This document shows positions 3,006 through 41,488 of a stretch of 64,000 bases of DNA, piece after piece. The position numbers and the translations under genes were made by a program. The stretch is from Candidatus Kapaibacterium sp. Its GTDB lineage: Bacteria; Bacteroidota; Ignavibacteria; Palsa-1295. Each line of letters starts with the position of its first letter. Within the stretch, counting starts at the first letter, position 1. Location of the stretch: positions 5,447 to 69,446 of the forward strand of contig JBBQWV010000016.1 of NCBI GenBank assembly GCA_038210275.1, given 5' to 3'. The notes below the pieces were generated by a model. That model was not told the DNA's origin. It did not search any database and saw only the letters and a program-made list of their open reading frames with translations.

Positions 3006-3022
3006 AAGGAATTGTGAAGTGT

Positions 3023-3108
3023 AATTGAGAATTGAGAAAAGATGCTAATACTTAAAGTTTGTTCGCTCTCCCATATACGACGCGGCATTATTTTCTCAAT
3101 TCTCAATT
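3023..3108. repeat. Perfect 18-bp inverted repeat AATTGAGAATTGAGAAAA / TTTTCTCAATTCTCAATT bracketing the ATG of the next gene
   Basis: The left arm is 3023-3040 and the right arm 3091-3108, with the start codon at 3042 inside the 50-nt loop. The left arm is itself a tandem AATTGAGA x2. Confidence 0.7.
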
Positions 3109-4010: not shown

Positions 4011-4013
4011 TTC

Positions 4014-7984: not shown

Positions 7985-8044
7985 AAATTTGAGTAGTGTA
8001 ATTTAAATTTATTTGTGTATTTACTTAACCTAACCATACAAACA

Positions 8045-9931
8045 ATGAAACATAGTAAACTCCTTAGGATGGTCGCATGGCTTGCCGTGTTGAGCATCGG
8101 AATGATCGGAGAAGTATTCGCTCAGGTACCATCGCTTGTTACCCAACAAACGAGGTTATCAACGGGCGGACCGACTCCAAGTTACGTCCAACTCCGTGCA
8201 AAAGCAGGCGTTGGAACAAGTACTGATGCCTACTTCTGGGATCAGGCACCTGCACCGACAGCCAATACGAATTACTCGCTTTGGTTGGACGCTAATAACA
8301 ATATCGTTCGAAGCAATCCGTTCGGACCGGGACAGTCAAATTACTTGATGCAGGTCAATGCAACAGGTACTGGTCTGCAATGGGTGAATCCTGCGAATTT
8401 AACCACTCTTGCAGGAGATATCATCGGACAGACTGGTGACGATTCAGTGAACGTCGGACATAGCGGTTTAAATAACCGTTTGATTCTGGGTATCAATAAT
8501 GCTACAGGATATGACGGAACGAGCTTGATCGCCATTGACCGTGGAGGTACGAACAGCAATGCAGTTCCGACTGCAGGTGCTATTGCTTACGGTGACGGTA
8601 CAAAATATATGTTCAATGCTGTGGGTACGACGGGTCAGATTCTTGCTTCAACCGGAGCGGGTGTTCCGATCTGGGTGAATTCACCTTCACTGCTCACATT
8701 TGATAACGGCTTGACTAAAACACTGGATAATGTTCAGTTTGGCGGACCACTTGTGAAGGCAACGTCAGTTGATCAGGCAACATTCGGTTTGACGTTCACC
8801 AATGGTACACTTGACCTTGGTAGTGCAGTCGGAACTTACGATATCAATATTGATCTCGGAAATTCAGCGACTCATAACATGAATATGAAGAACATCGCTG
8901 TTGATCTAACTGCTCCGAACATCCTTGCACTTGATGCAGCGGGCAATGTTCGTACCCGTACGTTCGGATCAATTATTACTGCTGATAACGGTTTGATCAC
9001 CAACGGCTTAGGGTTGGTATCAATGGGCGCTCCTGCAACAGGAGGCGCATTGCTTTTAACCGATCGTTTTATTGGTTTGGCTACACATAAGTTGACTTAT
9101 GAAGGTGCCGGTGATTTCAATATCGGTGACGGTACATCTGCTCAGAACATTACTTTGGATCCGAGCGCAACCGGTTCTACAAACTTCAAAAATTTGGCGA
9201 ATCAGGCTGCTCCTGCGGCAACGGATAGGTTCGTCATGATGAGCACCGGATCGGATAAAGCTTTCACGCGCACACTTGCATCGCTTGTGAATGCTGATAA
9301 CGGTTTAGTCGTAGATAATACGGTTACTCCAGGTACAAGCACAGTTCAGCTTGGTGCTCCGGCAACAGGCGGCGCATTGCTTTTATCAAACCGGTTTATT
9401 GGACTTCGTGGATTTGCATTGAACTTTGACGGAGACGGAAGCATCAATATGGGCGCTTCGGGTAACGTTAATGTGAATGTCAATACCGGTGCAACTGGCA
9501 ATATGACGCTTCAGGGTACGACCTTGAGTGCTGGAGCTGGAACACCGAAATTTGATAACATGGCATTTGTTGACGGAACTACGAACAATGTTCGTATTGC
9601 GAAGACAACAGATATCACGACCAATGCGACACCGACGATGTTTATAACCGTCGATGCCACAGGTAATATCACAAAGTCCGTCAGCCCAACAACAGGGTTT
9701 GCTAAAGGACAGATCGCAGGAAACGGAAGTTATCAGTACACCTCACCTGTAATAGCTACGGGTATCGTTGCCGGAGCTTCAATCACTTGTACGGTACAAA
9801 ACATGACCGGTATAACAGGTACGATTCTTGTGCAGGTAACAGGTGTCAATACTGCTGCAGGTACATTTACGGTTGAGACATCAGAGAGTATTCAAAACGG
9901 CTCGTTTATTAACTACGTCGTAATGAATTAA
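8045..9931 (+). CDS. Secreted tail-fibre-like repeat protein (paralogue 2). ORF track starts at 8015; 8045 (MKHSKLLRMVAWLAVLSIGMIGEVFAQ) is the likelier start
   Basis: Signal peptide, then Gly/Thr/Asn-rich β-repeat sequence. Repeated LLL(T/S)(D/N)RFIGL motif (GAPATGGALLLTDRFIGL / GAPATGGALLLSNRFIGL). C-terminus ...GTFTVETSESIQNGSFINYVVMN resembles the C-termini of 6416 and 11003 proteins. Confidence 0.65.
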   Translation: MKHSKLLRMVAWLAVLSIGMIGEVFAQVPSLVTQQTRLSTGGPTPSYVQLRAKAGVGTSTDAYFWDQAPAPTANTNYSLWLDANNNIVRSNPFGPGQSNYLMQVNATGTGLQWVNPANLTTLAGDIIGQTGDDSVNVGHSGLNNRLILGINNATGYDGTSLIAIDRGGTNSNAVPTAGAIAYGDGTKYMFNAVGTTGQILASTGAGVPIWVNSPSLLTFDNGLTKTLDNVQFGGPLVKATSVDQATFGLTFTNGTLDLGSAVGTYDINIDLGNSATHNMNMKNIAVDLTAPNILALDAAGNVRTRTFGSIITADNGLITNGLGLVSMGAPATGGALLLTDRFIGLATHKLTYEGAGDFNIGDGTSAQNITLDPSATGSTNFKNLANQAAPAATDRFVMMSTGSDKAFTRTLASLVNADNGLVVDNTVTPGTSTVQLGAPATGGALLLSNRFIGLRGFALNFDGDGSINMGASGNVNVNVNTGATGNMTLQGTTLSAGAGTPKFDNMAFVDGTTNNVRIAKTTDITTNATPTMFITVDATGNITKSVSPTTGFAKGQIAGNGSYQYTSPVIATGIVAGASITCTVQNMTGITGTILVQVTGVNTAAGTFTVETSESIQNGSFINYVVMN

Positions 9932-9944
9932 TTTATTTTTCATG

Positions 9945-10000
9945 ATGGGAGCGGTCTTGGCGCCACTGAGCCGTTCCTATCATGAATTTATTTCAGAGTT
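9945..10000 (+). terminator. Putative intrinsic terminator after the 8045 gene
   Basis: Imperfect 15-bp inverted repeat TCATGATGGGAGCGG ... CCGTTCCTATCATGA (13/15 complementary, loop contains palindrome GGCGCC), followed by TTTATTT. Confidence 0.45.
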
Positions 10001-10048
10001 TACAAGAGAGAGAGGGAGCCATTAGTTTGCCAATATCAACACGGCTCG

Positions 10049-10834
10049 TTGAAAAAGAGAGAAACAATTTGTATGTGCGCACTAGCGAAAAATCGAATTG
10101 AAGCTTGTATCATTGGCATTATCACTTTGGTGATGATGCCGATGGTTCTTGCTGCGCAACCAACATCGTCGGCACTTGAAAACCCACCGCCTGTTTCACA
10201 GCGCACTTATACTGCGCCACCGCCGAAGGCGAAACAAGAGACTGTAAGAACTATAGCGATCAACGAAGCTCCAAGACCCTTACCTCAACAAATATCAGAT
10301 ATTGAGCCTCGTATAGAAATTTTAAAAGTAAGCGCCGGAAACCCGGATCATTTATCCGCAGGATTTTATGCTTCCTTTGAACCAAAGACATACGACACAG
10401 TCTTTATTTATGAAGGGGAAACCGATAAGTATGAAGTGATAGGCATTCATGCTAATAAAGAAGTCATACAAGGTGATTCCGGATCAGTTGCAGAAGAGGT
10501 AACCTTTCGGATGAATCACTTCAATGAAAACGATATACCTGTTGCCAACGAGCAGCATACGAAGACGAATTCCATGATCATTCGGACCGGATTTATTCCT
10601 TCACAAGGATTCGGATCCAAGCGATATAGATTTGCTATCAAGCCCGGAAAATTTATTTTGTCCGGCAATTCAATGATCTCCGCATCGGTCCACATGACGC
10701 ACGGAGAGAATATTGGCACCATACTGTGTGCAGTGACAAATATTGATTTTAAGAAAGGGATATTCTATGTCGAGACATCGAATGAAGTCCCGAAGGGAGA
10801 AGATATTAACTGGATCATTATCAACTCGATGTGA
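10049..10834 (+). CDS. Hypothetical secreted protein (start could be 10073, MCALAKN...)
   Basis: N-terminal hydrophobic segment IIGIITLVMMPMVLAAQ, then a Pro-rich stretch. No recognisable domain. It sits between the tail-fibre-like paralogues. Confidence 0.45.
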   Translation: MKKRETICMCALAKNRIEACIIGIITLVMMPMVLAAQPTSSALENPPPVSQRTYTAPPPKAKQETVRTIAINEAPRPLPQQISDIEPRIEILKVSAGNPDHLSAGFYASFEPKTYDTVFIYEGETDKYEVIGIHANKEVIQGDSGSVAEEVTFRMNHFNENDIPVANEQHTKTNSMIIRTGFIPSQGFGSKRYRFAIKPGKFILSGNSMISASVHMTHGENIGTILCAVTNIDFKKGIFYVETSNEVPKGEDINWIIINSM

Positions 10835-11002
10835 TCTGGTTTTAGATTTGCCTTTAAAAAGAGTGTTTGTTTCCCATGTACAGTTTCTTGACATTACGTT
10901 TGCTTTTTAACAAATTGGCGAATTTAGGCTTTTGTGGATAAGCAGTGGAATACGCTGCGCACAATGAACGTTAAATTTGCACAATAACAAAATGCCTCAA
11001 AG

Positions 11003-14000
11003 ATGATACTGAAAAAATTTTCGGTATTTTACGTCTTATTTTTTATTTGCCTTACCGCAACGATCGTTCGCGGTCAGGCAAGTATGCAGCGTGGAGTCCG
11101 TATCTCCAACGCTAATGGCAATATTGTAACGATTCAAACCGGAATCGCTCCGCAAACCTATAGCCTCGTCCTTCCACTTACTTCGAATCCATCCCTTACA
11201 ACGGCTTCAGTTCTTTACGGACTCGGAACTGGTAATCTCACATGGACAGATATCACCGGCGTTGCTGATGGATGGCTGTTGGCGCTCAAAACTTCCGGGG
11301 GTAATCTTGTGCCAACATGGATTGATCCAACGACGATTGGCGCATGGGCACTGAATGGAAATGCAACCATCTCCGCGTGGAATGGCTCGGCAGGAAATTT
11401 TCTCGGTACGACTTCTGCACAGCCTTTAGTTGTTGCAACGACCAACTCCACTCCACAAGATATTATATTCATGACGGGCAACACTGAGAAGATGCGATTG
11501 CTCGGTTCGGGAGAATTGGGAATCGGATTAAGTCCGGTTTCAGGAAGACTTCTTGATGTTGGTGGAACATCGGGAACGGCAAACATTCGCTTCACATCAC
11601 TTTCCGGAGCTGATCTTAATACAGCACTGGCTGCGACCGATGGTTTAGTGATCGCCGATAATAACGGTGATCTGACAAAACGCTCGCCGTCTATTTTGGG
11701 TACGGTACTTGCGGGATCTTATGTTCAGTATGATCTTGCTGGAACACAAAATATCTCTGCCACTCGCCCGGATTATCTTTTTAATGTTGCTTATGCGAAT
11801 GCTGCGTCTGATGCTAATGCTGCCGGAGCGGTGATTACTTCTGCATCAGGTGCAACAAACCGCAGCGCTGCTGGTTTGGCTGTAACGGCCACAGCAACAG
11901 GAACGGGTACATCTACCGGATTGAATGTTACAGCCGGAGGTGGCGCTACAAATTATGCGGCACTATTCAATGGCGGCAGAGTCGGTATCGGGCAGAGCAC
12001 ACCATCACAATTACTTGAAGTTCGCGACGGAAATCTTTTCTTATCGAATTCTGGAACAGCAAGTCAGTTACAATTGCAAGGCACAGGTACGGGACTGAGT
12101 ACTTTGCAAGCGGGAGCGCAAGGGACAAATATTTTTAATCTTACTCTGCCCACTTCTACTCCATCAGCGAATCAGGTATTGGGTGTGAATGCTATTTCAG
12201 GCGCAGGACCTTATGCAATTACACTTGGATGGCAGAATATTATCAGCGGTTCGTTTGTAAATTATAATACTACTTCAGTTCAAAATAGCGGAGTCATTAC
12301 TTCGCCAAATTATCTTTTTAATGTTGCTTACGCTGGAAGCGCAACGACGAACGATGCGCTCGGAGCTGTTATTTCATCTGTTGGAGGAACATCCGGAGCA
12401 ACAAATGCAACAGGACTCGCCGTTACTGCTACTGCAAATAGCACCGGTACATCGACGGCGCTGAATGTTACCGCCGGTGGGGGATCGACAAATTATGCCG
12501 CACTCTTCAATGGAGGAAAAGTCGGAATAGGGCAGAGTGCTCCTACACAATTGCTTGAAGTTCGAAACGGAAATTTCTTGCTTTCAAATTCCGGAACTGC
12601 AGATCAATTACAATTTCAAGGAACAAGTTCGGGCATCACCACTTTTCAGGCAGGAGCACAAGGCGCGACAAATATTAATTATACACTCCCCACATCTGCC
12701 TCTGCTGCGAACGGCTATGTACTTGCATCAACAACAGGCGGAGTGATGAGTTGGACTGATCCTTCAGCTCTTGTATCAAGTAATTATTGGTCACTTGCAG
12801 GAAATGCGATTGCTTCAGCTTGGAATGGCGCAGCCGGAAGTTTTCTGGGCACGACAAGCACACAGCCATTAGTTGTTGCCACAACGAACACCACAACACC
12901 GCAGCCAATAGAATTTTTTACGAACAATGCTGAGAAGATGCGGCTTACTTCTGCCGGGAATCTCGGAATTAATCAAACAAATCCTTCACAACTTCTGGAT
13001 GTTGCCAACGGCAATATTTTACTTTCAAATTCCGGGACAGCCGGTCAATTACAATTTCAAGGTACAAGTTCAGGCATTACATCCTTGCAAGCAGGAGCAC
13101 AAGGAGCTAATACATACAACGTAACATTTCCGATCACAACACCTGCAGCAAATCAAGTATTGGGAGTCAGTGCGATTTCTGGTGCTGGTCCATACTCAAT
13201 AGCATTAGGATGGCAGAATGTTTTCAGTGGCTCGTTCGTAAATTACAATACGGCATCGGCGCAGAATACTGCCATCATCACCTCACCGAATTATCTTTTT
13301 AATGTTGCCTATACATCAAGTGCAACAACGAATAATGCGTTAGGGGCAGTTATTACTTCTGTCGGTGGTACTTCCGGAGCGACCAACGCATCAGGTCTTG
13401 CAGTAACTGCCACTGCAAATGGAGCAGGTACTTCAACGGGTTTGAATGTTACCGCAAGCGGAGGTACTACAAATTATGCTGCATTATTCAGCGGTGGCAA
13501 TGTAGGTATTGGACAAGTTTCGCCAACGCAATTACTCGAAGTTCGTAACGGAAATTTCTTGCTTTCAAATTCCGGAACAGCGGATCAATTGCAATTCCAG
13601 GGCACGAGCACCGGCATTACAACTTTTCAAGCGGGCGTTCAGGGAGCGACGAATATAAATTATACTCTGCCGACTGCTGCTGCGGTTGCAAATGGTTATG
13701 TTCTTTCATCAACAACGGGCGGTGTGATGAGTTGGAGCGATCCATCATCGCTTATTGCAAGTAATTATTGGTCACTTACCGGAAATGCAACAGCATCGGC
13801 ATGGAATGGTGCTGCCGGAAATTTCTTAGGTACGACAAGCACACAGCCACTTGTCGTTGCAACAACGAATACCACGACACCTCAGCCTATAGAATTTTTC
13901 ACGAACAATGTTGAGAGCGCACGTATTGCTTCGACAGGTGAATTTGGTATTGGTTTAACTCCTACAGCCGGAAGACTTCTTCATGTTGCTGGTACTGGTG

Positions 14001-17000
14001 GAACAGCGAATATTCGTTTTAACTCCTTATCAGGTGCTGATCTTAATACGGCTTTAGCTGCCACAGATGGGTTAGTGATAGCTGATAATAATGGTGATCT
14101 TACCAAACGTTCTCCTTCAGTCTTGGGAACTGCGCTGACTGGATCGTACGTGCAGTATGATATTTCTTCGCAGCAAAGTATTTCCGTTACTCGGGCAAAT
14201 AATTTATTTAATGTTGCCTACAATGCTGCTGCCACAGATGCGAATGCGGCAGGAGCTATTATCTCATCTGTAGGCGGCGCGACAAATAGAAGTGCAAACG
14301 GACTTGCCGTTACTGCAACTGCAACTGGAACAGGAACATCAACTGGGTTGAATGTCACTGCTGGCGGCGGTGGAACAAATTATGCTGCATTGTTTAGTGG
14401 CGGCAATGTGGGAATTGGTCAGGCAACGCCGACGCAATTGCTTGAACTTCGCAATGGTAATTTTTTACTTTCTAATTCCGGTTCTGCAGACCAACTTCAA
14501 TTTCAAGGCACGAGTACCGGGATAACAACTTTCCAAGCAGGGGTGCAAGGTGCGACGAATATCAATTACACGCTTCCAATTTCAGCTGCAGCTGCAAATA
14601 ATTATGTGATGGCTTCGACGACTGCGGGAGTACTTAGTTGGGTGGATGCTTCGACGATTACGAATGATTGGCATTTAATCGGAAACGCAACAGCTTCCGC
14701 ATGGAATGGAGCTGCTGGAAATTTCTTAGGGACGACAAGTACTCAGCCGCTTGTGGTTGCAACGACGAATACTACGACTCCACAGCCTATAGAGTTCTTC
14801 ACGAACAATACGGAGAAGATGCGTTTATTACCATCAGGTAATTTTGGTATTGGACAAACAAATCCATCTCAATTACTCGAAGTTCGTAATGGTAATTTCT
14901 TGCTTTCGAATTCAGGTTCAGCCGATCAGTTACAATTCCAGGGGACAAGCACAGGGATAACAACTTTCCAAGCAGGGGTGCAAGGTGCGACGAATATCAA
15001 TTACACGCTTCCAATTTCAGCTGCAGCGGCAAATAATTATGTGATGGCTTCGACGATTGCGGGAGTACTTAGTTGGGTGGATGCTTCGACGATTACGAAT
15101 GATTGGCATTTAATTGGCAACGCAACAGCTTCTGCATGGAATGGCGCTGCCGGAAATTTCTTAGGCACGACCAGTACTCAGCCTCTTGTGGTTGCAACAA
15201 CAAATACCACGACTCCACAGCCGATAGAATTCTTCACAAATAATACGGAGAAGATGCGCTTGCTGCCATCGGGTAATCTCGGTATAGGACAAACGAATCC
15301 ATCGCAGCTTCTTGAAGTTCGCAACGGCAACCTTCTTCTTTCGAATTCTGGTTCAGCAGATCAATTACAATTCCAAGGTACAGGTGCCGGAACGACGAGC
15401 TTTTTAGCCGGTGCTCAGGGAGTGACAAATCTTACATATACTCTTCCTATTTCAGCGCCTTCTGCTAACTCATTATTTTATTCATTGGGCGGAGCTGCAA
15501 GTAATTTGTCATGGTCGAATGCCGGTAGCAATGGACAGATACTCACGGTCACGGGCGGAGTACCTTCATGGCAGAACGCCTCGATATTAAATGGCAACTT
15601 TGTTCTTTATGATGTGACGACACCTCAAAATCTTTCAGTCACACGTACTGATAATTTATTTAATGTTGCCTACGCTGCCGGAGCAAATGATGCTAACGCC
15701 GCTGGCGGTGTTGTCACTTCAGTAGGCGGAGCAACGAACAGAAGTGCTACAGGACTCTCAGTGACTGCAACAGCGACAGGAACGGGTACATCAACCGGAT
15801 TAAATGTTACATCAGGTGGCGGCGGAACAAATTATGCTGCATTATTTAACGGAGGAAATGTAGGAATTGGTCAGGCAGCGCCGACGCAATTACTTGAAGT
15901 TCGTAATGGAAATTTGTTGCTCTCAAATTCAGGTTCAGCCGATCAGTTGCAATTCCAAGGTACGAGCACAGGGCTAACAACATTCCAAGCAGGGGTGCAG
16001 GGTGCGACGAATATAAATTATACTCTCCCTATTTCTGCCGCTGCAGCAAATAATTATGTAATGGCTTCGACAACAACCGGGACACTGAGTTGGGTTGATG
16101 TTTCAACTATTACAAATGATTGGCATTTAATTGGCAATGCAACAGGATCGGCTTGGAACGGTGCAGCGGGAAGTTTTCTTGGTACGACAAGTACACAGCC
16201 TCTTGTCGTTGCAACGACAAATACTACTACTCCTCAGCCGATAGAATTCTTTACAAATAATGCTGAGAAGATGCGCATTGCTTCTTCGGGAAATGTCGGT
16301 ATTAATCAAACTAATCCATCGCAGCTGCTTGAAGTTCGCAACGGAAATCTTCTCATTTCGAATTCAGGTTCGTCAGGTCAATTGCAGTTGCAAGGATCAA
16401 GTACTGGCGCTTCAACTTTCTTGGCAGGTTCACAGGGCGCTGTCAATATTAATTATACGCTTCCTGTTTCTTCGCCTTCGGCAAACTCATTGCTATATTC
16501 TTCCGGCGGAGCGACAAATAATCTTGTATGGTCCAATACCGGAAGTAATGGACAGATATTAATAGTAACAGCCGGAGTTCCGAGTTGGCAGAATTCAAAT
16601 ACACTGACAGGTTTTGTGCTCTATGATGTGACGACTCCGCAAAATTCCTCTGTTACGCGTACAGATAATTTATTTAATCTTGCGTATGGGGCTGGTGCGA
16701 ATGATGTTAATGCAGCAGGAGCAGTAATATCTTCAACTGGTGGGGCAACCAATCGCAGTGCAACAGCACTTTCATTAACCTCGGCAGCAACCGGAACCGG
16801 GACTTCTACCGGATTAAGCGTAACTGCTTCAGGTGGTACAACACAGACAGCAATTATAGCGACAGGTAATATAAATTTGCTCAGCGCAGGCGGAGTAGCG
16901 AGTAATTTAAGTTTACAAAATCCGGCAGGGACGTTCGCTTCAAGTTTTACGTCGGGTACGCAAGCAGCGAACATTAATTATACATTGCCAATATCTGTCG

Positions 17001-20000
17001 CTGCATCAAACGGATATGTACTCTCATCCTCAACAACTGGTTCGCTTAGTTGGGTAGATGCGACGACTGTTACCAATGATTGGCATTTAATTGGAAATGC
17101 AACCGGATCGGCATGGAATGGCGCAGCAGGAAGTTTCCTCGGAACGACAAGTACTCAGCCATTAGTAATCGCAACAACAAATACGACGACACCACAGCCG
17201 ATCGAATTCTTCACGAACAATACGGAGAAGATGCGGTTGCTGCCTTCGGGTAATTTTGGTATTGGGCAAACTAATCCATCGCAGTTGTTCGAAGTACGTA
17301 ATGGTAATTTCTTGCTTTCAAATTCAGGAGCCTCTGATCAATTACAATTCCAGGGAACAGGGTCAGGTATAACAACCTTCGCAGCAGGTGCACAAGGAGT
17401 AACGAATCTTAACTATACTCTGCCGATCTCTGCCCCTGTTGCGAACTCATTGCTCTATTCTTCAGGCGGTGCGGCAAGTAATTTATCGTGGTCGAATACC
17501 GGAACGGCGGGACAAATTTTAACGATCACCGGTGGAATACCAAGTTGGCAGAATTCCAATACGCTTACTGGCTTTGTACTCTACGATGTAACGACTCCAC
17601 AAAATTCATCTGTTACTCGCACAGATAATTTATTTAATCTTGCTTATGGAGCTGGCGGCAATGATGCGAATGCTGCCGGAGCTGTTATCAGTTCAACAGG
17701 TGGAGCTACCAATAGAAGCGCGACAGCTTTATCATTGACTTCAACTGCGACAGGCACAGGCACTTCAACAGGGTTAAGCATAACTTCATCAGGTGGTACA
17801 ACTCAAACAGCTATTTCCGCGACAGGAAATATCAATTTATTGAGCGCTGGCGGTTTGGCAAGCAGTTTCAGTCTGCAGAATCCGGCTGGTACTTTTGCGA
17901 CAAGTTTTTCTGCAGGTGCGCAGATCGCAAATATTGGTTACACACTTCCTACTGCCGGAGCAGCAGCGAATGGATATGTTCTTTCGGCAACAACAACGGG
18001 AGTTCTGAGTTGGAGCAATCCAACTGTTCTTCTTAGTAATAATTACTGGACTCTTTCAGGTAATTCCGGAACGACAGCATATAACGGCGCAACAGGCAAC
18101 TTCTTAGGTACAACGGATGCACAGCCGTTAGTTCTTGCAACAACGTTTACTGCAACACCGCAGCCGATAGAGTTCTTTGCGAATAATTTGGAGAAGATGC
18201 GCATTGCTGCAAACGGCAATGTCGGAATCGGTCAGACAAATCCGTCTCAGCTTCTTGAACTTAAAAATGGTAATCTGTTATTTTCAAATACTACTGGCAC
18301 TGCGGATCAGTTACAACTTCAAGGTACGGCGGCAGGTATAACGACTTTCGCTGCAGGCGCACAAGGAGCAACGAATCTTAATTACACACTTCCGATCCTA
18401 ACTCCGGCGGCAAGTTCATTGCTCTACTCATCCGGCGGTGCAGCAAGTAATTTATCGTGGTCGAATACCGGAACGGCGGGACAAATTTTAACAATCACAG
18501 GCGGAATACCTTCGTGGCAGAATTCAAATACTCTGACAGGTTTTGTGCTCTATGATGTGACTACTCCTCAGAATGCATCTGTAACACGCACTGATAATTT
18601 ATTTAATATTGCCTATGGTGCAGGCGGCAATGATGCGAATGCTGCGGGTGCAGTAATAACTTCTGTCGGCGGAGCCACGAATAGAAATGCAACAGGTCTT
18701 TCTGTGACAACAACTGCAACCGGCACCGGTACCTCGACAGGATTGAATATAACTACTGGTGGTGGTACAACAAATTATGCTGCAACATTCAGCGGCGGCA
18801 ATGTTGGAATCGGTCAGGTTGCACCGACGCAATTGCTTGAAGTCAAGAATGGTAATCTTCTACTTTCAAATTCCGCGACTGCCGATCAGTTGCAATTTCA
18901 AGGTACAAGTACTGGCCTGAGCACATTCGCAGCCGGAGTGCAAGGAGCGAATACTTTTAACTACACGTTGCCGATCACTACGCCATCAGCAAATCAAGTC
19001 TTGACCGCGACGGCAGTTTCCGGTGCAGGTCCTTTTGCAGTGACATTGGGGTGGCAAAATGCTTCAGGCTCATTTGTGAACTACAATACAGCCACAGTAC
19101 AAAATTCTGCAGTTATCACATCACCGAATTATCTCTTTAATGCAGCCTACGCCGCAAGTGCCACAGCAAATAATGCACTTGGCGGAGTGATTACATCTGC
19201 AAGCGGAACGTCGGCTGCAACAAATGCAACGGGTCTTGCTGTGACCGCGACTGCAAATGGAGCAGGTACCTCAACAGCATTGAATGTTACGGCAGGTGGT
19301 GGTACAACAAATTATGCTGCATTATTTAATGGCGGAAATGTTGGAATTGGTCAAGCCACTCCATCGCAATTACTTGAAGTGCGAAACGGAAATCTTTTGC
19401 TTTCAAACTCAGGTTCAGCCGATCAGTTACAATTCCAAGGGACAAGCACAGGAATAACGACATTGCAAGCAGGTGCTCAGGGAGTAACAAGTCTTAATTA
19501 TACACTTCCGATCACTGCGCCGGCTGCAAGTTCATTATTATATTCATCAGGTGGAGCGGCAAGTAATTTATCCTGGTCGAATACAGGAAGCAATGGTCAG
19601 ATCCTGACAATTACGGCAGGAGTACCTTCTTGGCAGAATGCTTCGGCTCTCAACGGATCGTTCGTTCAATATGATGTTACCTCAGCGCAAAATGGATCAG
19701 CGACACGTACGGATAATCTTTTTAATGTTGCGTATGCTGCAGGTGCAAGTGATGTGAATGCGGCAGGCGCAGTAATAACTTCTGTCGGCGGAGCCACGAA
19801 TAGAAATGCAACAGGTCTTTCCGTGACAACAACTGCAACCGGCACCGGTACCTCGACAGGATTGAATGTAACTGCAGGTGGTGGCGGAACAAATTATTCC
19901 GCATTATTTAATGGTGGTAATGTGGGTATCGGACAAGCAACGCCAACACAATTGCTTGAAGTCAAGAATGGTAATCTTCTACTTTCAAATTCCGCGACTG

Positions 20001-23000
20001 CCGATCAGTTACAATTCCAGGGTACGAGTACTGGCTTAAGCACTTTCCAAGCCGGTGTTCAGGGTGCAAATACATTTAATTACACGCTACCAATTACGAC
20101 TCCGACTGTAAATCAAGTTCTTACTGCAAGTGCAGTCAGCGGTGCAGGTCCTTTTGCCGTTACTCTTTCCTGGGCAGCTGCAGCGGCGGCAGGATCGTAT
20201 GTTAATTATAACACTGCTTCGATTCAAAATACCGCTGTTATTACTTCTCCAAATTACTTATTTAATGTAGCCTACGCCGCAAGTGCCACAGCAAATAATG
20301 CACTTGGTGGAGTGATTACTGCTGCAAGCGGAACATCTGCGGCAACAAATGCGACCGGACTTGCAGTTACTGCAACAGCAAACGGAGCGGGCACTTCAAC
20401 AGGTCTGAATGTCACAGCCAGTGGTGGAACAACAAATTATGCTGCATTATTTAATGGTGGTAGAGTAGGTATCGGCAATGCAACACCGACGCAATTACTT
20501 GAAGTCAAGAGTGGTAATCTTTTACTCTCGAATGCAGGTGCGGCTGATCAGTTGCAATTTCAAGGAACAAGCACCGGAATATCCACATTCCAAGCAGGAG
20601 CGCAGGGAGCAACAAATATAAATTACACTCTTCCTCTTGCTGCTCCTGTTGCCAATAATTATGTACTCACTGCAACGACGGGTGGCGTGATGAGTTGGAC
20701 AGACCCAGCAGCACTTCCTCCGAATGATTGGCATTTAACAGGTAATAGTGCTACGACAGCTTATAACGGAGCTACAGGTAATTTCATTGGTACGACGGAT
20801 GCACAACCATTTGTCTTAGGTACAACATTTACGACAACATCTCAACCGATCGAATTTTTTACGAACAACACGGAGAAGATGCGTTTGCTGCCATCGGGTA
20901 ATCTTGGTATCGGACAGACAAATCCAACACAGCTTCTTGAAGTCCGCAATGGTAATTTACTTCTCTCGAATTCAGCGACTGCCGATCAGTTACAATTCCA
21001 AGGTACGAGTACAGGGCTGAGTACTTTCGCAGCAGGAGTTCAGGGAGCGAATACTTTTAATTACACACTGCCGATCACAACACCGACTGTAAATCAAGTT
21101 CTCACAGCAAGTGCAGTCAGCGGTGCAGGACCTTTTGCCGTTACTCTTTCCTGGGCAGCTGCAGCGGCGGCAGGATCGTATGTAAATTATAATACTGCTT
21201 CTGTACAGAATACCGCTGTTATTACTTCTCCAAATTACTTATTTGATGTTGCTTACGCAGCAAGTGCTACGGCTAATAATGCACTCGGTGCGATCATCAG
21301 TTCTTCAAGCGGTACATCTGCGGCAACCAATGCAACGGGTCTTGCTGTCACTGCAACAGCAAATGGAGCAGGCACTTCAACCGGTTTAAATGTTACTGCC
21401 GGTGGTGGTACAACAAATTACGCAGCATTGTTCAATGGCGGTAGAGTAGGTATTGGAAATGCCGCCCCGGCGACCGGGCTCGATCTTTCCTCTGATTTTG
21501 CAACACGTGAATTGAATTATGCAACTGCAATGCCTGCTTCAAGCAATGACGTGAATTTTGACGCATCAGGAAATCTGATAAGTCTTGTACGTATTGCAAA
21601 TGCTGCTGCACCATTTACTATAACCGGTTTTGCCGGAGGGCGGAACGGTAAGATGTTAACGGTATATAATGCTACGGGTCAGGCATTGTCTATTGCAAAT
21701 CAAAGCGCATCGAGTGTAGCCGCAAATAGAGTTATTACCGGAACGGCCGCAAACGTTGTCCTTCAATCTGGAAGTAGTGTTGATTTTAAATACAGCCCGA
21801 CTGATGCTCGCTGGTTCATCGCTTCACTGAATGACCTCAGTCAGCTGCCCGGTATGTTTGTAAATTACAATACTGCAACTGCTCAGAATACGGCAGTAAT
21901 AACTTCTGCAAATTATCTTTACAATATTGCTTATGCTGCAAGTGCTACAACCAATAATGCACTTGGGGCTTTAATTACTTCGGCAAGTGGCACCTCCGGT
22001 GCTACAAATGCAACGGGACTTGGTATTGTTTCTACAGCAAATGGAGCAGGAACATCCACCGGTTTGAATGTAAATGTGAGTGGCGGCACGACGAACTATG
22101 CAGCATTATTCAATGGTGGTAATGTCGGAATAGGGCAAACCGCTCCAACACAGTTGCTTGAAGTCAAGAACGGTAATTTACTTCTTTCAAATTCCGCAAC
22201 TGCTGATCAATTACAATTCCAAGGAACAAGTACTGGTTTAAGCACTTTCCAAGCCGGTGTACAGGGAGCGAATACTTTTAATTACACACTGCCGATCACA
22301 ACGCCGACTGTAAATCAAGTTCTCACAGCAAGTGCAGTCAGCGGAGCGAGTCCTTATGCTGTAACTCTTTCATGGGCAGCAGCAGGTGGAGGATCATTCG
22401 TTAATTATAATACTGCTGCGGTTCAGAACAGCGCAATTATTACTTCTCCTAATTATCTGTTTAATGTTGCCTATGCTGCAAGTGCAACAACGAATAATGC
22501 GTTAGGCGGAGTCATCAGTTCAGTCGGTGGAACATCAGGAAATACAAATGCGACAGGTCTTGCTATTACTGCAACAGCCCATAGTACCGGAACATCTACA
22601 GGATTGAATGTTAACGCTAGTGGTGGTACAAATAATTATGCAGCACTCTTCCAAAGTGGTAGGGTTGCCATCGGTAATGCAGCACCTGCGACAGGACTTG
22701 ATCTCAGTTCTGATTTTGCAACTCGTGAATATAATTATGCTACCTCACTTGTTGGTACAAAAAATGATGTAAACTTTGACGGCGCAAATAATTCGATCAG
22801 CTTTGTTCGCCTTGCTACAGCATCAGGTGGATTTACTTTGACAGGTTTCACCGGTGGTCAAAACGGAAAACGACTAACGATCTATAACGGAACTGCGCAA
22901 ACGATGACGATTGCCAATCAAAGTGCAAGCAGTGTTGCTGCGAATAGGATCATCACAGGAACACAGGTGAATATTCCTATTCCAACGGGCGGATCTTGCG

Positions 23001-24757
23001 ACATGGTTTATAGCACAACAGAATCACGCTGGATTATAAGTTCGACAAGCGGAGTATCAGGATGGCTCTATACCGGCAACAGCGGATTAACCGACAACGT
23101 TAATAACTATCATGGCACATTAGACGATATACCGATTCGATTCGTTGCAGGCGCTTCCGGCGCTCCGAGTACAAAGATGTTGCTTGATATTAATGGCAAC
23201 TTGTTATTCGGACCGAATTCCGGAGCAACAAGCTTCCCTGCAGGAACGGCAGGTCGTTTAGCATTTGGTGATAATCTCAATACAGTCCGATTAGGAAGCG
23301 TACCCACATTCGGAACGCGTATATTTAATATGATAGATCAAAGTGCTGTACTTCGCGTGTGGCGTTTCAATAGCAATGCTGGTGGTACTGATCCAGCGAT
23401 TGAATTGATTGGCGGTACGAATGACGACCAAGGCAATTCTGCCAATCATTGGTGGGACGTTTATGCAACAGGTACTCCCGGTGTTGCTGGAACCGGAACC
23501 GGTGGAGGTTACGGTGAGCATATGGCATTCCGTCGTCGTACCGGTGCACATGATTCTGAGTATCTGAGTGTTTTCGCAGGGGGCAATATTGGAATCGGTA
23601 ATAATGGAGTGAATGGTGTCGCAACTCCGGATACTCGATTGGTCGTAAGACAAGTTGACGGTGCAACAAGCACTATTTCAAATCTTGTATCTTTGTATCA
23701 CTCTTCCAGCGCGGGAAATGGCATTACCAGTGGTTTTGGATCAGGACTTGTTTTTAAAGCGGAGGATACAACGGTAGATAATCAGGAAATGGCACGAATT
23801 GCAGCTATTTGGACAAACACCGTTGATGCGAGTCGCACAGGAGCGTTGACTTTCTCCACTGTGAATAACGGTCTTGCCGAAGCTGAAAGAGTCCGTATTT
23901 CGGGTGTTGGGTATGTTGGTGTTGGAACTACCACACCTGCCGTCAGCATGGACATCAATGGAGCGCTGGCAACGGAGGCGACAAATATTGCTCTCTCGAA
24001 TGGTACAAATAATAACTTAGCACTAACGAATCAATCTTTTGCACGAATTACTGGACCAACAGCAGCATTTACTGTTACCGGTGTTGCAGGTGGTGTGGAT
24101 GGACAGATACTGAGGATTGAAAATACTACTGCTCAGAATATGACGATCTCTCATAGTAGCGCTTCATCCACCGCAGGTAACCGTATTTATTCTCCAAGTG
24201 GATCCGATGTCGTTCTCAAAGGACAGAATTCTTCAGCTGAGTTGATCTACGATGCGACCAATACGCAATGGGTTTTGACAAACTCGAATTCAAACCAGAT
24301 TACCGGTCCTATCGGCTCTATTGCGTATATGACAAAAGCAGCAGATCAGAGTGTGACCAATTCGGCAGTGCTTGCTAATGACGCAGATATTTCATTCTCA
24401 ACCAATCCGAATGAAACATGGGAGATTCATGGTGAACTTCATGCAGATAATACTGTAGCAAACTCGAATATCAAGATTGCATTTACTATACCCGCTGGTT
24501 CCACAATGAAAATTTATTATACCGGCATCCAAGATGGAGGAGTCTCAGCTGGTGCATCAATCCTCACTGCCTCTGGTGTTGCAAAAACTATTACGATTGC
24601 TGCAGGTGCTGTTTCGACTTATATCCAACTTCATGGAATTGTCAGGAATGGCGGAACTGGTGGCACAGTGCAACTCAAATGGGCACAAGGAACTGCTAAT
24701 GCCCAGTCAACCATCCTTCGTCAGGATTCTTTCATCAAAGCAGTGCGCGTGAACTAA
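11003..24757 (+). CDS. Giant (4,584 aa) secreted tail-fibre-like repeat protein; surface fibre/adhesin candidate
   Basis: Single uninterrupted 13.7-kb ORF with signal peptide MILKKFSVFYVLFFICLTATIVRGQA. Roughly twenty copies of module A (NVGIGQ.(S/A)P(S/T)QLLEVRNGN(L/F)LLSNSG.ADQLQFQGTS.G.TTFQAG.QG..N.NYTLP...). These interleave with module B (NYLFNVAYA...GATNRSA.GLAVTATATGTGTSTGLNVTAGGG.TNYAALFNGG) and module C (ASAWNGAAGNFLGTTSTQPLVVATTNTTTPQPIEFFTNN.EKMRL). A distinct C-terminal ~1,100 aa follows. Confidence 0.85.
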   Translation: MILKKFSVFYVLFFICLTATIVRGQASMQRGVRISNANGNIVTIQTGIAPQTYSLVLPLTSNPSLTTASVLYGLGTGNLTWTDITGVADGWLLALKTSGGNLVPTWIDPTTIGAWALNGNATISAWNGSAGNFLGTTSAQPLVVATTNSTPQDIIFMTGNTEKMRLLGSGELGIGLSPVSGRLLDVGGTSGTANIRFTSLSGADLNTALAATDGLVIADNNGDLTKRSPSILGTVLAGSYVQYDLAGTQNISATRPDYLFNVAYANAASDANAAGAVITSASGATNRSAAGLAVTATATGTGTSTGLNVTAGGGATNYAALFNGGRVGIGQSTPSQLLEVRDGNLFLSNSGTASQLQLQGTGTGLSTLQAGAQGTNIFNLTLPTSTPSANQVLGVNAISGAGPYAITLGWQNIISGSFVNYNTTSVQNSGVITSPNYLFNVAYAGSATTNDALGAVISSVGGTSGATNATGLAVTATANSTGTSTALNVTAGGGSTNYAALFNGGKVGIGQSAPTQLLEVRNGNFLLSNSGTADQLQFQGTSSGITTFQAGAQGATNINYTLPTSASAANGYVLASTTGGVMSWTDPSALVSSNYWSLAGNAIASAWNGAAGSFLGTTSTQPLVVATTNTTTPQPIEFFTNNAEKMRLTSAGNLGINQTNPSQLLDVANGNILLSNSGTAGQLQFQGTSSGITSLQAGAQGANTYNVTFPITTPAANQVLGVSAISGAGPYSIALGWQNVFSGSFVNYNTASAQNTAIITSPNYLFNVAYTSSATTNNALGAVITSVGGTSGATNASGLAVTATANGAGTSTGLNVTASGGTTNYAALFSGGNVGIGQVSPTQLLEVRNGNFLLSNSGTADQLQFQGTSTGITTFQAGVQGATNINYTLPTAAAVANGYVLSSTTGGVMSWSDPSSLIASNYWSLTGNATASAWNGAAGNFLGTTSTQPLVVATTNTTTPQPIEFFTNNVESARIASTGEFGIGLTPTAGRLLHVAGTGGTANIRFNSLSGADLNTALAATDGLVIADNNGDLTKRSPSVLGTALTGSYVQYDISSQQSISVTRANNLFNVAYNAAATDANAAGAIISSVGGATNRSANGLAVTATATGTGTSTGLNVTAGGGGTNYAALFSGGNVGIGQATPTQLLELRNGNFLLSNSGSADQLQFQGTSTGITTFQAGVQGATNINYTLPISAAAANNYVMASTTAGVLSWVDASTITNDWHLIGNATASAWNGAAGNFLGTTSTQPLVVATTNTTTPQPIEFFTNNTEKMRLLPSGNFGIGQTNPSQLLEVRNGNFLLSNSGSADQLQFQGTSTGITTFQAGVQGATNINYTLPISAAAANNYVMASTIAGVLSWVDASTITNDWHLIGNATASAWNGAAGNFLGTTSTQPLVVATTNTTTPQPIEFFTNNTEKMRLLPSGNLGIGQTNPSQLLEVRNGNLLLSNSGSADQLQFQGTGAGTTSFLAGAQGVTNLTYTLPISAPSANSLFYSLGGAASNLSWSNAGSNGQILTVTGGVPSWQNASILNGNFVLYDVTTPQNLSVTRTDNLFNVAYAAGANDANAAGGVVTSVGGATNRSATGLSVTATATGTGTSTGLNVTSGGGGTNYAALFNGGNVGIGQAAPTQLLEVRNGNLLLSNSGSADQLQFQGTSTGLTTFQAGVQGATNINYTLPISAAAANNYVMASTTTGTLSWVDVSTITNDWHLIGNATGSAWNGAAGSFLGTTSTQPLVVATTNTTTPQPIEFFTNNAEKMRIASSGNVGINQTNPSQLLEVRNGNLLISNSGSSGQLQLQGSSTGASTFLAGSQGAVNINYTLPVSSPSANSLLYSSGGATNNLVWSNTGSNGQILIVTAGVPSWQNSNTLTGFVLYDVTTPQNSSVTRTDNLFNLAYGAGANDVNAAGAVISSTGGATNRSATALSLTSAATGTGTSTGLSVTASGGTTQTAIIATGNINLLSAGGVASNLSLQNPAGTFASSFTSGTQAANINYTLPISVAASNGYVLSSSTTGSLSWVDATTVTNDWHLIGNATGSAWNGAAGSFLGTTSTQPLVIATTNTTTPQPIEFFTNNTEKMRLLPSGNFGIGQTNPSQLFEVRNGNFLLSNSGASDQLQFQGTGSGITTFAAGAQGVTNLNYTLPISAPVANSLLYSSGGAASNLSWSNTGTAGQILTITGGIPSWQNSNTLTGFVLYDVTTPQNSSVTRTDNLFNLAYGAGGNDANAAGAVISSTGGATNRSATALSLTSTATGTGTSTGLSITSSGGTTQTAISATGNINLLSAGGLASSFSLQNPAGTFATSFSAGAQIANIGYTLPTAGAAANGYVLSATTTGVLSWSNPTVLLSNNYWTLSGNSGTTAYNGATGNFLGTTDAQPLVLATTFTATPQPIEFFANNLEKMRIAANGNVGIGQTNPSQLLELKNGNLLFSNTTGTADQLQLQGTAAGITTFAAGAQGATNLNYTLPILTPAASSLLYSSGGAASNLSWSNTGTAGQILTITGGIPSWQNSNTLTGFVLYDVTTPQNASVTRTDNLFNIAYGAGGNDANAAGAVITSVGGATNRNATGLSVTTTATGTGTSTGLNITTGGGTTNYAATFSGGNVGIGQVAPTQLLEVKNGNLLLSNSATADQLQFQGTSTGLSTFAAGVQGANTFNYTLPITTPSANQVLTATAVSGAGPFAVTLGWQNASGSFVNYNTATVQNSAVITSPNYLFNAAYAASATANNALGGVITSASGTSAATNATGLAVTATANGAGTSTALNVTAGGGTTNYAALFNGGNVGIGQATPSQLLEVRNGNLLLSNSGSADQLQFQGTSTGITTLQAGAQGVTSLNYTLPITAPAASSLLYSSGGAASNLSWSNTGSNGQILTITAGVPSWQNASALNGSFVQYDVTSAQNGSATRTDNLFNVAYAAGASDVNAAGAVITSVGGATNRNATGLSVTTTATGTGTSTGLNVTAGGGGTNYSALFNGGNVGIGQATPTQLLEVKNGNLLLSNSATADQLQFQGTSTGLSTFQAGVQGANTFNYTLPITTPTVNQVLTASAVSGAGPFAVTLSWAAAAAAGSYVNYNTASIQNTAVITSPNYLFNVAYAASATANNALGGVITAASGTSAATNATGLAVTATANGAGTSTGLNVTASGGTTNYAALFNGGRVGIGNATPTQLLEVKSGNLLLSNAGAADQLQFQGTSTGISTFQAGAQGATNINYTLPLAAPVANNYVLTATTGGVMSWTDPAALPPNDWHLTGNSATTAYNGATGNFIGTTDAQPFVLGTTFTTTSQPIEFFTNNTEKMRLLPSGNLGIGQTNPTQLLEVRNGNLLLSNSATADQLQFQGTSTGLSTFAAGVQGANTFNYTLPITTPTVNQVLTASAVSGAGPFAVTLSWAAAAAAGSYVNYNTASVQNTAVITSPNYLFDVAYAASATANNALGAIISSSSGTSAATNATGLAVTATANGAGTSTGLNVTAGGGTTNYAALFNGGRVGIGNAAPATGLDLSSDFATRELNYATAMPASSNDVNFDASGNLISLVRIANAAAPFTITGFAGGRNGKMLTVYNATGQALSIANQSASSVAANRVITGTAANVVLQSGSSVDFKYSPTDARWFIASLNDLSQLPGMFVNYNTATAQNTAVITSANYLYNIAYAASATTNNALGALITSASGTSGATNATGLGIVSTANGAGTSTGLNVNVSGGTTNYAALFNGGNVGIGQTAPTQLLEVKNGNLLLSNSATADQLQFQGTSTGLSTFQAGVQGANTFNYTLPITTPTVNQVLTASAVSGASPYAVTLSWAAAGGGSFVNYNTAAVQNSAIITSPNYLFNVAYAASATTNNALGGVISSVGGTSGNTNATGLAITATAHSTGTSTGLNVNASGGTNNYAALFQSGRVAIGNAAPATGLDLSSDFATREYNYATSLVGTKNDVNFDGANNSISFVRLATASGGFTLTGFTGGQNGKRLTIYNGTAQTMTIANQSASSVAANRIITGTQVNIPIPTGGSCDMVYSTTESRWIISSTSGVSGWLYTGNSGLTDNVNNYHGTLDDIPIRFVAGASGAPSTKMLLDINGNLLFGPNSGATSFPAGTAGRLAFGDNLNTVRLGSVPTFGTRIFNMIDQSAVLRVWRFNSNAGGTDPAIELIGGTNDDQGNSANHWWDVYATGTPGVAGTGTGGGYGEHMAFRRRTGAHDSEYLSVFAGGNIGIGNNGVNGVATPDTRLVVRQVDGATSTISNLVSLYHSSSAGNGITSGFGSGLVFKAEDTTVDNQEMARIAAIWTNTVDASRTGALTFSTVNNGLAEAERVRISGVGYVGVGTTTPAVSMDINGALATEATNIALSNGTNNNLALTNQSFARITGPTAAFTVTGVAGGVDGQILRIENTTAQNMTISHSSASSTAGNRIYSPSGSDVVLKGQNSSAELIYDATNTQWVLTNSNSNQITGPIGSIAYMTKAADQSVTNSAVLANDADISFSTNPNETWEIHGELHADNTVANSNIKIAFTIPAGSTMKIYYTGIQDGGVSAGASILTASGVAKTITIAAGAVSTYIQLHGIVRNGGTGGTVQLKWAQGTANAQSTILRQDSFIKAVRVN
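14456..15325 (+). repeat. Two tandem 435-bp units (14456-14890, 14891-15325), ~95% identical, inside the giant ORF; a further degenerate unit starts at 15326
   Basis: Direct comparison shows long identical runs, e.g. gggataacaactttccaagcaggggtgcaaggtgcgacgaatatcaattacacgcttccaatttcagctgcagc at 14519 and 14954. The units encode LLEVRNGNFLLSNSGSADQLQFQGTSTGITTFQAGVQGATNINYTLPISAAAANNYVMAST(T/I)AGVLSWVDASTITNDWHLIGNATASAWNG... Confidence 0.85.
18640..22440 (+). repeat. Dispersed near-identical direct repeats inside the giant ORF (e.g. ~18650 vs ~19790; ~20102 vs ~21083 vs ~22300)
   Basis: A ~100-nt stretch gcagtaataacttctgtcggcggagccacgaatagaaatgcaacaggtctttc.gtgacaacaactgcaaccggcaccggtacctcgacaggattgaat recurs ~1.14 kb apart. 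A ~75-nt identical stretch ...gcaagtgcagtcagcggtgcagg.ccttttgccgttactctttcctgggcagctgcagcggcggcaggatcgtatgt recurs 981 bp apart. Confidence 0.8.
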
Positions 24758-27549: not shown

Positions 27550-27636
27550 ATATAACTATAATTTTATTTGGAATTCTCACCGGAGTTCTCATTCAAATAA
27601 TATTGTTGTAATAGCTTAGCTAAATTTTACAATAAT

Positions 27637-31519: not shown

Positions 31520-31529
31520 AATGATATAT

Positions 31530-41487: not shown

Positions 41488-41488
41488 T

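Follow-up and report, generated by a model that had tools for sequence, protein, structure and literature searches.

A 4,584-residue modular protein of Candidatus Kapaibacterium, probably a surface fibre resembling the MAT fibres of Bdellovibrio

The stretch of DNA analysed here, a 64-kb portion of a contig of Candidatus Kapaibacterium sp. that is called the window below, contains on its forward strand one very large open reading frame (ORF), which starts with an ATG at 11003, terminates with a stop codon at 24755-24757 and comprises 4,584 codons with zero internal stops; an earlier sequence-only reading of the window, which had described this frame as uninterrupted, is therefore confirmed on this point. 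For an NCBI contig of 87,439 bp, a product of identical sequence, 4,584 amino acids (aa) long, has already been recorded without a name. Thr, Ala, Gly, Ser and Asn are abundant in this product, hereafter the giant protein, and cysteines are two in number. Its architecture, its relatives and its probable nature as a fibre are the subject of this report; the gene is organised as follows, with module and domain names that are explained below.

11003..24757, forward strand: the giant ORF, 4,584 codons and a stop codon, with its product on the NCBI record
11003..11362, forward strand: N-terminal region (aa 1-120), a signal-peptide-like start and then a segment conserved in orthologues
11372..22666, forward strand: repeat array (aa 124-3888), with 17 A, two degenerate A, two A', 14 B and nine C modules and the linkers L1, L2 and L3
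21449..21838, forward strand: first copy of the D module (aa 3483-3612), within the repeat array, 222 bits with its hidden Markov model (HMM)
22667..23056, forward strand: second copy of the D module (aa 3889-4018), HMM score 220 bits, predicted by AlphaFold2 (AF2) with a local confidence score (pLDDT) of about 60-80
23057..23917, forward strand: non-repeated region U (aa 4019-4305), divergent putative shaft domains, with homology to the Bd1334 beta-helix at the end of the region
23918..24295, forward strand: third copy of the D module (aa 4306-4431), directly before the tip, 185 bits, a predicted beta-sandwich with pLDDT 75-90
24296..24754, forward strand: C-terminal tip domain (aa 4432-4584, 153 aa), a predicted TNF/C1q-like jelly roll with pLDDT of about 70-90

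Modules were counted with HMMs seeded with one example per repeat type and iterated on the protein itself. The A module (GIGQxxPxQLLEVRNGN...QLQFQG...NYTLP, 56 aa) is present in 17 canonical copies and two degenerate ones (aa 1941-1996 and 2259-2316), and is accompanied by two A' variants (GIGLxPxxGRLL...DLTKRSPS; aa 173-236 and 982-1045). The B module (NYLFNVAYA...TNYAALFNGG, about 70 aa) occurs in 14 full copies and one partial copy, and the C module (AWNGAAG...PQPIEFFTNN...MRL, about 50 aa) in nine. The earlier counts by eye, about 19 canonical A-type modules (QLLEV...QLQFQG) and about 14 modules of the NYLFNVAYA...TNYAALFNGG type, agree well with these numbers. Three alternating module types had also been proposed: the three types exist, but their order is not a simple alternation, as three kinds of linker, L1, L2 and L3, connect the modules and build three super-modules.

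Super-module I, A-L1-C, 145-147 aa: six copies, and two with a degenerate A
Super-module II, A-L2-B, 179-181 aa: six copies
Super-module III, A-L3-B, 192-194 aa: five copies

Duplication has also affected blocks of two super-modules, whose copies start 981, 960-966 and 1119-1125 nt apart. The repeat array encloses one D module, and the C-terminal fifth of the protein is made of the 130-aa D module, found three times (from aa 3483, 3889 and 4306), of region U, about 290 aa long, and of the 153-aa C-terminal domain. Linkers, super-modules, D modules, U and the C-terminal domain were all absent from the earlier description. The N-terminal region begins with a Sec-type signal-peptide-like sequence, MILKKFSVFYVLFFICLTATIVRGQA, and includes an L1-like stretch at aa 85-121 that was detected by HMM.

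Scans of the whole protein against Pfam, NCBIfam and PHROG returned no family above threshold; the sub-threshold matches to PuhC (TIGR03054, 31 bits against a cut-off of 55), CtsR, TraK_N and phrog_2498 were taken as compositional or motif noise and discarded. A phmmer search of the whole protein against the PDB gave no match either, and the structures of mosaic adhesive trimer (MAT) fibres were found by profiles only. A profile of the repeat unit II-I-A, built from copies within the giant protein and from two close homologues, was compared with a PDB set of 177,635 sequences and matched 8OND (Bd2133, residues 662-1031) with an E-value of 1.6e-8, while the other two matches had E-values of at least 0.24; three to four stretches are aligned with 8OND, including ERMRI..GNLGLGTAAPTSALHVE, VGINTAAPLQKLHVENGN and ...ERMRIDTSGNLGLGTAAPTSALHVE. 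The profile of the C-terminal 695 aa matched 8OML (Bd1334, 818-1151; E 1.5e-11), 8ON4 (Bd1334, 914-1151; E 1.2e-7) and again 8OND (Bd2133, 662-1031; E 0.003), and nothing beyond these three entries. All of them are trimeric beta-helix shafts of the MAT fibres of the predator Bdellovibrio bacteriovorus.

The MAT proteins, as described by Caulton et al. 2024 (PMC10769870), are displayed at the surface and measure about 1,000 aa, with a signal peptide that is directly followed by a conserved, beta-rich N-terminal domain of about 130 aa; the regions matched here are intertwined trimeric beta-helices, bounded by capping loops with the consensus V-G-G/N-π-x-x-P-x-x-x-L, and the C-termini are either an S74 chaperone or swapped adhesive tips. 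In the profile alignments, the recurring VGIGxxxPxxxL motif of the giant protein is aligned with the MAT capping loops and their flanks, and a strict form of it, [VLFIA]G[IV][GN]xxxPxxx[LVF], occurs 18 times. In Bd2133 a domain boundary falls right after ...LHVE, the equivalent of which is ...QLLEV in the A module; thus, each interval from one GIGQ to the next would correspond to one MAT shaft domain. These alignments identify the shaft of the giant protein as a putative series of beta-helix domains bounded by capping loops and homologous to MAT shafts; when the variants of the motif are included, the number of such domains is estimated at about 25.

The distal end was modelled with AF2 on the C-terminal 695 aa, using an alignment of 12 sequences. 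Confidence was high enough for use in D (pLDDT about 60-90) and in the C-terminal domain (about 70-90) only, and region U was modelled poorly. Foldseek searches of the tip against the PDB retrieved jelly rolls, including birnavirus VP2; the TNF-like lectin PLTL of Photorhabdus, with a probability of 1.00 and a TMt (the TM-score normalised by target length) of 0.44-0.60; human 4-1BBL, with a TMt of 0.56; and also the C-terminal domain of Chlamydia Pgp3 and the central tail fibre of phage lambda. Against predicted viral structures, 409 matches were found at E ≤ 1e-3, among which were annotated tail fibres, fibre proteins with collagen repeats, a C1q-domain protein and compact proteins of the size of the tip; the best of them had a TMt of 0.74 with a root-mean-square deviation (rmsd) of 5.4 Å and a TMt of 0.62 with an rmsd of 4.0 Å. 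With moderate confidence, the model points to a TNF/C1q-like jelly roll, of the kind that is present at the ends of trimeric fibres. In MAT fibres the classes of tip are S74, a novel beta-sandwich, TNF-like and C-type lectin, and the tips include TNF-like domains that bind N-acetylglucosamine (GlcNAc) and lipopolysaccharide (LPS) glycans (PMC10769870). The predicted tip of the giant protein is probably a glycan-binding module too, with a presumed ligand. Peptidase_S74 is absent from the giant protein according to the Pfam scan.

At the opposite end, inspection revealed a signal-peptide pattern, in which positive charges at the start are followed by a hydrophobic core of some 17 residues and by an end of the type ..VRGQA..; the same pattern is kept in the orthologues P0032, P0111 and P0129. 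Anchoring as a lipoprotein was considered and rejected, as the lipobox is not conserved and the leader of P0111 is without a cysteine. A C-terminal sorting domain of the type IX secretion system (T9SS), either Por_Secre_tail (PF18962) or type-B, was not found in the giant protein at E ≤ 1.

The giant protein is likely to be a secreted, homotrimeric, phage-tail-fibre-like surface fibre, which resembles those MAT fibres of Bdellovibrio that do not end in S74. After the signal peptide, the chain would run as a series of about 25 shaft domains, each one delimited by a VGIGxxxPxxxL capping loop, which in the trimer would intertwine into beta-helix prisms; the shaft would end with two divergent beta-helix domains, followed by the beta-sandwich D and by the TNF/C1q-like jelly-roll tip. 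The fibre would be displayed on the cell surface, where the tip would bind its ligand, most probably a glycan at the surface of another cell, or a polymer. From the dimensions of the crystal structures of Bd1334 (95 Å per 334 aa) and Bd2133 (142 Å per 370 aa), i.e., 0.28-0.38 Å per residue (PMC10769870), the length of the fibre may be estimated by scaling at about 130-175 nm. Trimer formation, surface display, anchoring mode, ligand and physical length are all features that we infer. The modular surface fibre suggested by the sequence-only reading is sustained by the homology of the modules to MAT shafts, by the signal-peptide-like start and by the fibre-tip-like end, whereas its display at the surface is still a presumption.

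Several observations weigh against this interpretation. The PDB matches consist of short, motif-rich stretches in a protein of biased composition (Gly, Thr, Ala, Ser and Asn), and the best E-values for a single stretch are 5.8e-6 with the C-terminal profile and 0.023 with the repeat-unit profile. As a monomer, the repeat region was modelled poorly by AF2, with a mean pLDDT of 53, and the fold of the shaft is not confirmed by prediction; a model of this quality might be expected of an obligate intertwined trimer, and a shallow alignment would look alike. The model was dropped from the fold search. Confidence in the tip model is moderate only, the jelly roll is a common fold, and by E-value the top PDB matches of the tip are birnavirus capsid jelly rolls. 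No match at E ≤ 1 to NF053851 (Bdello_MAT_N) was found for the whole giant protein, its first 200 aa, P0111 or P0129, and in the giant protein neither a T9SS C-terminal domain nor a lipobox nor another kind of anchor could be found; finally, the formation of trimers, the passage through the outer membrane and the ligand are all putative.

The same size, repetitiveness, secreted appearance and Gly/Thr/Ala/Ser/Asn-rich composition would also suit a monomeric adhesin of the beads-on-a-string or beta-solenoid type, exported by a type I or type IX system like the RTX adhesins or SprB-type proteins, in which every module folds by itself and a single chain serves as a spacer for an adhesive end. A T9SS cargo protein encoded in the same window indicates that the organism probably possesses this system, and the monomer model of the repeat region neither supports nor excludes such a protein. 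However, a Por_Secre_tail or type-B T9SS domain, RTX repeats and Ig-like, cadherin or similar repeat families are not found in the giant protein, the sole solved homologues that can be detected are obligate trimers, and TNF/C1q-like tips are trimeric as a class; a monomeric adhesin is thus considered unlikely, and the trimeric fibre is retained as the preferred interpretation.

The repeats are not close copies at the DNA level. Aligned super-modules have nucleotide identities of 66-88%, compared with amino-acid identities of 68-96%, and ungapped comparisons of DNA repeat copies over 200-300 nt give 60-87%. For 40 pairs of copies, synonymous differences amount to a proportion (pS) of 0.43-0.86, close to or at saturation, and the ratio of non-synonymous to synonymous substitutions (dN/dS) is 0.04-0.15, with five of the pairs having a dS too saturated for an estimate. 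At positions where the residue is the same, many pairs use the same codon in 37-45% of the cases, which is close to the 37-39% predicted by codon usage alone, and rates of 60-69% are reached only in the youngest pairs. Given that synonymous sites are near saturation and codons are scrambled, the duplications are old and concerted evolution has left no trace, and purifying selection acts strongly on the protein sequence of every copy. Selection for codon divergence, to which pS values above 0.75 might have pointed, was rejected, since the Nei-Gojobori pS can pass 0.75 at saturation and the direct test of codon identity gave values that equalled or exceeded random expectation and in no case fell clearly short of it.

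The exceptional length of the protein would then have originated from the repeated duplication of blocks of one to three modules, and purifying selection on the protein would have kept the copies while their DNA drifted apart. The sequence-only reading had described the repeats as near-identical and had argued from the maintenance of the frame across them that the full-length product is selected; with DNA copies that are 66-88% identical and a longest exact repeat of 74 nt, the description is not correct and the premise of the argument fails, but its conclusion stands, as the dN/dS values provide stronger evidence for selection on the product than the open frame alone. The many spurious antisense ORFs that it mentioned are not a distinctive trait of the gene, since antisense open stretches of at least 60 aa have a density of 2.40 per kb in it and of 2.55 per kb in ten others from the window. 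The repeated modules, more than 40 in number, in which amino acids are conserved and codons are nearly randomised, represent a clean case of repeat evolution, and this near-complete scrambling between conserved copies is a point of specialist interest; it also leaves the gene stable against recombination and assemblable from short reads.

The soundness of the assembly could be verified in part. The longest exact repeat leaves zero recurring 77-mers in the gene, so that reads of 100-150 nt can be placed uniquely. An independent assembly of the source run SRR19962015 with k=31 produced a contig (L015) of 11,065 bp, corresponding to window positions 1531-12595, which agrees with the window in all of its 11,065 bases and independently confirms the first 1.6 kb of the giant gene. 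The contig ends precisely at the gene's first repeated 31-mer (12566); repeats of this type explain why short-k assemblies break at such genes and, likewise, why most relatives found by an alignment-based scan of contigs from species-representative genomes lie at contig ends.

The same breaks, together with the fact that the relatives' short-read assemblies mostly end inside the repeats, could be taken to mean that an assembler chained the repeats of several shorter genes, or that the true sequence is frameshifted and the gene dead. An orthologous locus on an ENA metagenome contig (L001, 3200-12079) would agree with this view, as its gene of about 8.9 kb is broken into at least five ORFs in frames 2, 1, 3, 2, 3 and 2, which may reflect a pseudogene or an assembly error; the risk of frameshift or mis-assembly is thus real for the gene family, but not visibly for the window studied here. 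Besides the unique placement of reads and the identical independent assembly, intact orthologues of 1.1-2.5 thousand residues with the same ends argue against an artefact, and so do the 4,584 stop-free codons and the low dN/dS in every computable pair of copies, because chimeric joins would rarely preserve both. An artefact or a dead gene is accordingly very hard to credit, and the gene of 13.7 kb is real and intact.

The closest homologues of the giant protein come from metagenome-assembled genomes (MAGs) labelled Candidatus Kapaibacterium, Kapabacteria or Ignavibacteriota; a contig scan with the single giant protein had given no match, and the relatives were obtained with the alignment-based scan. 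All the orthologues, which come from MAGs labelled mostly Kapaibacterium, share with the giant protein the N-terminal region, U, D and the C-terminal domain, and their lengths are as follows.

L008: 1,113 aa
P0111: 1,578 aa
L006: 1,801 aa
L005: 1,878 aa
P0129: 2,496 aa
L001 (broken): about 2,960 aa
Giant protein of the window: 4,584 aa

Number, type and order of the shaft modules differ between orthologues, and conservation among them is highest in the tip region (U, D and the C-terminal domain), while the shaft varies four-fold in length. The modules of the giant protein are on average slightly closer to each other than to those of the orthologues (for B modules, 0.80-0.93 within the giant protein and 0.74-0.80 to orthologues), which points to an expansion that occurred mostly within its own lineage. 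The length-tunable fibre of the sequence-only reading is therefore acceptable over evolutionary time, given orthologues of 1,113-4,584 aa with the same ends; a rapid change of copy number by recombination or slipped-strand pairing is instead unlikely, because exact identity between copies extends over 74 nt at most.

This pattern also bears on whether the protein could be a passive structural layer or spacer, a long fuzzy coat that sets a distance or excludes phages and grazers and whose tip is structural. Extreme length and strongly conserved shaft modules suggest that the shaft matters, and the neighbourhood is rich in envelope and LPS genes. However, it is the tip that is most conserved while the length of the shaft varies, and related fibres swap tips between proteins, as is typical of receptor-binding proteins; a purely passive role appears rather improbable in comparison with a fibre that binds through its tip.

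The module family is large and unnamed. A module profile retrieved 16,936 metagenomic cluster representatives at E ≤ 1e-3 among 1.84 billion proteins, and every match that bears a name from its own source is a "hypothetical protein"; several matches are 3.1-4.0 thousand residues long, and the giant protein is the longest among the members listed. Distant relatives with D or A/C modules either terminate in Peptidase_S74 or contain a YadA_head or Phage_depo_C domain, and the D module is present also in the S74-bearing relatives P0014 and P0019. P0015, of 634 aa, is a miniature of the giant protein, with one each of C, A, L1, B and D and the C-terminal domain. The precomputed family PF26696 is assigned to many relatives of about 600 aa (P0015, P0047, P0080 and others). 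A JGI contig from another metagenome contains two paralogous fibre genes in tandem, P0009 and P0129, with the same type of tip; one paralogue has at least 1,112 aa, being cut by the contig end, and the other, P0129, has 2,496 aa, most of its central region being unmatched by the module HMMs of the present window. The literature on giant Kapabacteria proteins and on later MAT-like work offered nothing specific beyond the MAT paper. The module HMMs, together with the grammar by which modules are joined, can be used to annotate this family.

The giant gene is the last of a conserved cluster, whose other members in the window are listed here.

125..1297, forward strand: OmpA-like protein with peptidoglycan-binding-type domains, which heads the cluster also in L005 and L006
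6347..7984, forward strand: 545-aa protein with one A module (aa 333-392) and, at its N-terminus, a weak Bdello_MAT_N-like domain; orthologues are known
8015..9931, forward strand: 638-aa secreted fibre-like protein, with a C-terminal stretch of about 80 aa in common with the 261-aa protein
10049..10834, forward strand: 261-aa protein that starts with a signal or transmembrane segment and has a proline-rich linker and a beta-rich domain

The order (OmpA-like, 545-aa, 638-aa, 261-aa and giant gene) is the same in L005 and L006 and is partly seen in L001 and L008, and the 261-aa gene is directly upstream of the orthologue of the giant gene in every locus where its position is visible. The 545-, 638- and 261-aa proteins, secreted and fibre-like, have no curated family above threshold. 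Residues 32-103 of the 545-aa protein match NF053851 (Bdello_MAT_N) at E 4.6e-7, with a score (29.8 bits) that falls short of the curated cut-off of 60, and this protein could represent the anchoring partner that the giant protein lacks. The 638-aa and 261-aa proteins have in common a C-terminal domain of about 80 aa (35% identity) that ends with ...(Y/W)-h-I-(V/I)-N and may be an alternative fibre tip. Similar endings were noticed by eye in the 545-aa protein and in P0126 and P0159, otherwise different relatives of 3-4 thousand residues. The 261-aa gene has 44 homologues, all un-named or annotated as hypothetical proteins.

Because the giant protein has no anchor domain of its own, it could be imagined as the distal segment of a composite organelle, in which the OmpA-like protein, the MAT-N-like 545-aa protein, the 638-aa and 261-aa proteins and the giant protein would be assembled in series on the surface, as in the long tail fibre of phage T4, which is made of four proteins. 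If this were the case, the organelle would have a reach of about 0.15 µm and could be used to recognise and capture other cells as prey or partners; at present a composite fibre is a minor possibility beside the self-contained fibre proposed above.

Like the MAT fibres, the giant protein has a signal peptide, a shaft delimited by capping loops and homologous to the beta-helices of Bd2133 and Bd1334, and no S74; its predicted TNF-like jelly-roll tip recalls in particular the non-S74 subgroup with TNF-like tips (Bd2439 and Bd2734), and in both cases several fibre genes with different tips are found in one genome. Unlike them, it measures 4,584 aa instead of about 1,000 aa, i.e., about 4.5 times the usual length; the N-terminal domain of about 130 aa is not detectable in it, and a weak match is present only in the neighbouring 545-aa protein; its tip has no sequence similarity to those of Bd2439 and Bd2734; its gene belongs to a conserved cluster with an OmpA-like gene; and its host is of the Kapabacteria/Ignavibacteriota type, with no known predatory lifestyle. 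Since the N-terminal domain, a defining feature of MAT proteins, is the point on which the comparison fails, the giant protein is not classed as a member of the superfamily; it is regarded as a MAT-like variant from a different phylum, elongated four- to five-fold. If this reading is correct, the MAT-type design, described in 2024 in Bdellovibrio, extends to uncultured bacteria of the Kapabacteria/Ignavibacteriota type, with a shaft that can be expanded about four-fold while the tip is kept; the four-fold range of shaft length among orthologues and the conserved five-gene cluster are also of specialist interest.

Phage fibres and tailspikes with a beta-helical shaft and a C-terminal knob or S74 chaperone, such as the L-shaped tail fibre pb1 of T5, the K1F endosialidase, the fibres of lambda and the collagen- or C1q-tipped fibres of uncultured Caudovirales, are also comparable: many phage fibre tips match the predicted tip in fold, and the GIGxxxPxxxL motif and neighbouring modules occur in relatives of the giant protein that end in Peptidase_S74. 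The giant protein is several times longer than these phage fibres. It differs from phage fibres also in having a signal peptide, a chromosomal non-phage context, no S74 and no collagen repeats. The similarity in fold and modules and the existence of S74-bearing relatives could suggest the tail fibre of a prophage, a tailocin or an extracellular contractile injection system; however, no structural genes of phages, tailocins or contractile injection systems occur in the 64-kb window, the rest of which consists of LPS-core, envelope and housekeeping genes, and PHROG matches are weak only. Moreover, virion proteins assembled in the cytoplasm need no signal peptide, and the gene belongs to a chromosomal cluster with an OmpA-like gene that is conserved in several MAGs. 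An origin from such a particle is accordingly very unlikely, and a cellular surface fibre accounts better for these data.

Giant repeat adhesins are in general common, and the protein described here is not categorically new. In many giant adhesins the tandem repeats are kept near-identical in DNA. The staphylococcal Embp (PMC9302970) and Giant1-5 of Apilactobacillus kunkeei (PMC12863079) are described as similarly large, secreted repeat proteins with a presumable role in attachment, but they have no sequence family in common with the giant protein, the copies of which are almost saturated at synonymous sites. Chlamydia Pgp3, whose C-terminal domain is among the Foldseek matches, and the BclA-type fibres of Bacillus follow a comparable design of a stalk with a TNF-like trimeric knob; their stalks are instead made of a coiled coil and a triple-helix motif, or of collagen, whereas that of the giant protein would be made of beta-helix modules, and the sequences are not similar.

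The block at 1692-5628, which separates the OmpA-like gene from the fibre genes, encodes a T9SS-sorted protein (the PF18962-bearing ORF at 1692-3005), a CarboxypepD_reg-like protein, an extracytoplasmic function (ECF) sigma factor and a putative anti-sigma protein. The block is missing from the orthologous loci L005 and L006 and looks like an insertion specific to the present genome; the sigma/anti-sigma pair (4014-5628), which had been considered as a regulator, was set aside as it does not occur in those two loci. The regions 25577-34495 and 49795-51084 are rich in envelope and LPS genes, coding for a GT2 and a PMT_2/ArnT-like glycosyltransferase, an M50 peptidase, two GT9 heptosyltransferase-like proteins, an MsbA-like ABC exporter and a Kdo transferase. 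On the reverse strand, at 40639-44099, a gene for an N6/N4 DNA methylase (PF01555) adjoins two ORFs (640 and 234 aa) for which Pfam gave no match, and this locus may be a restriction-modification system or another defence unit.

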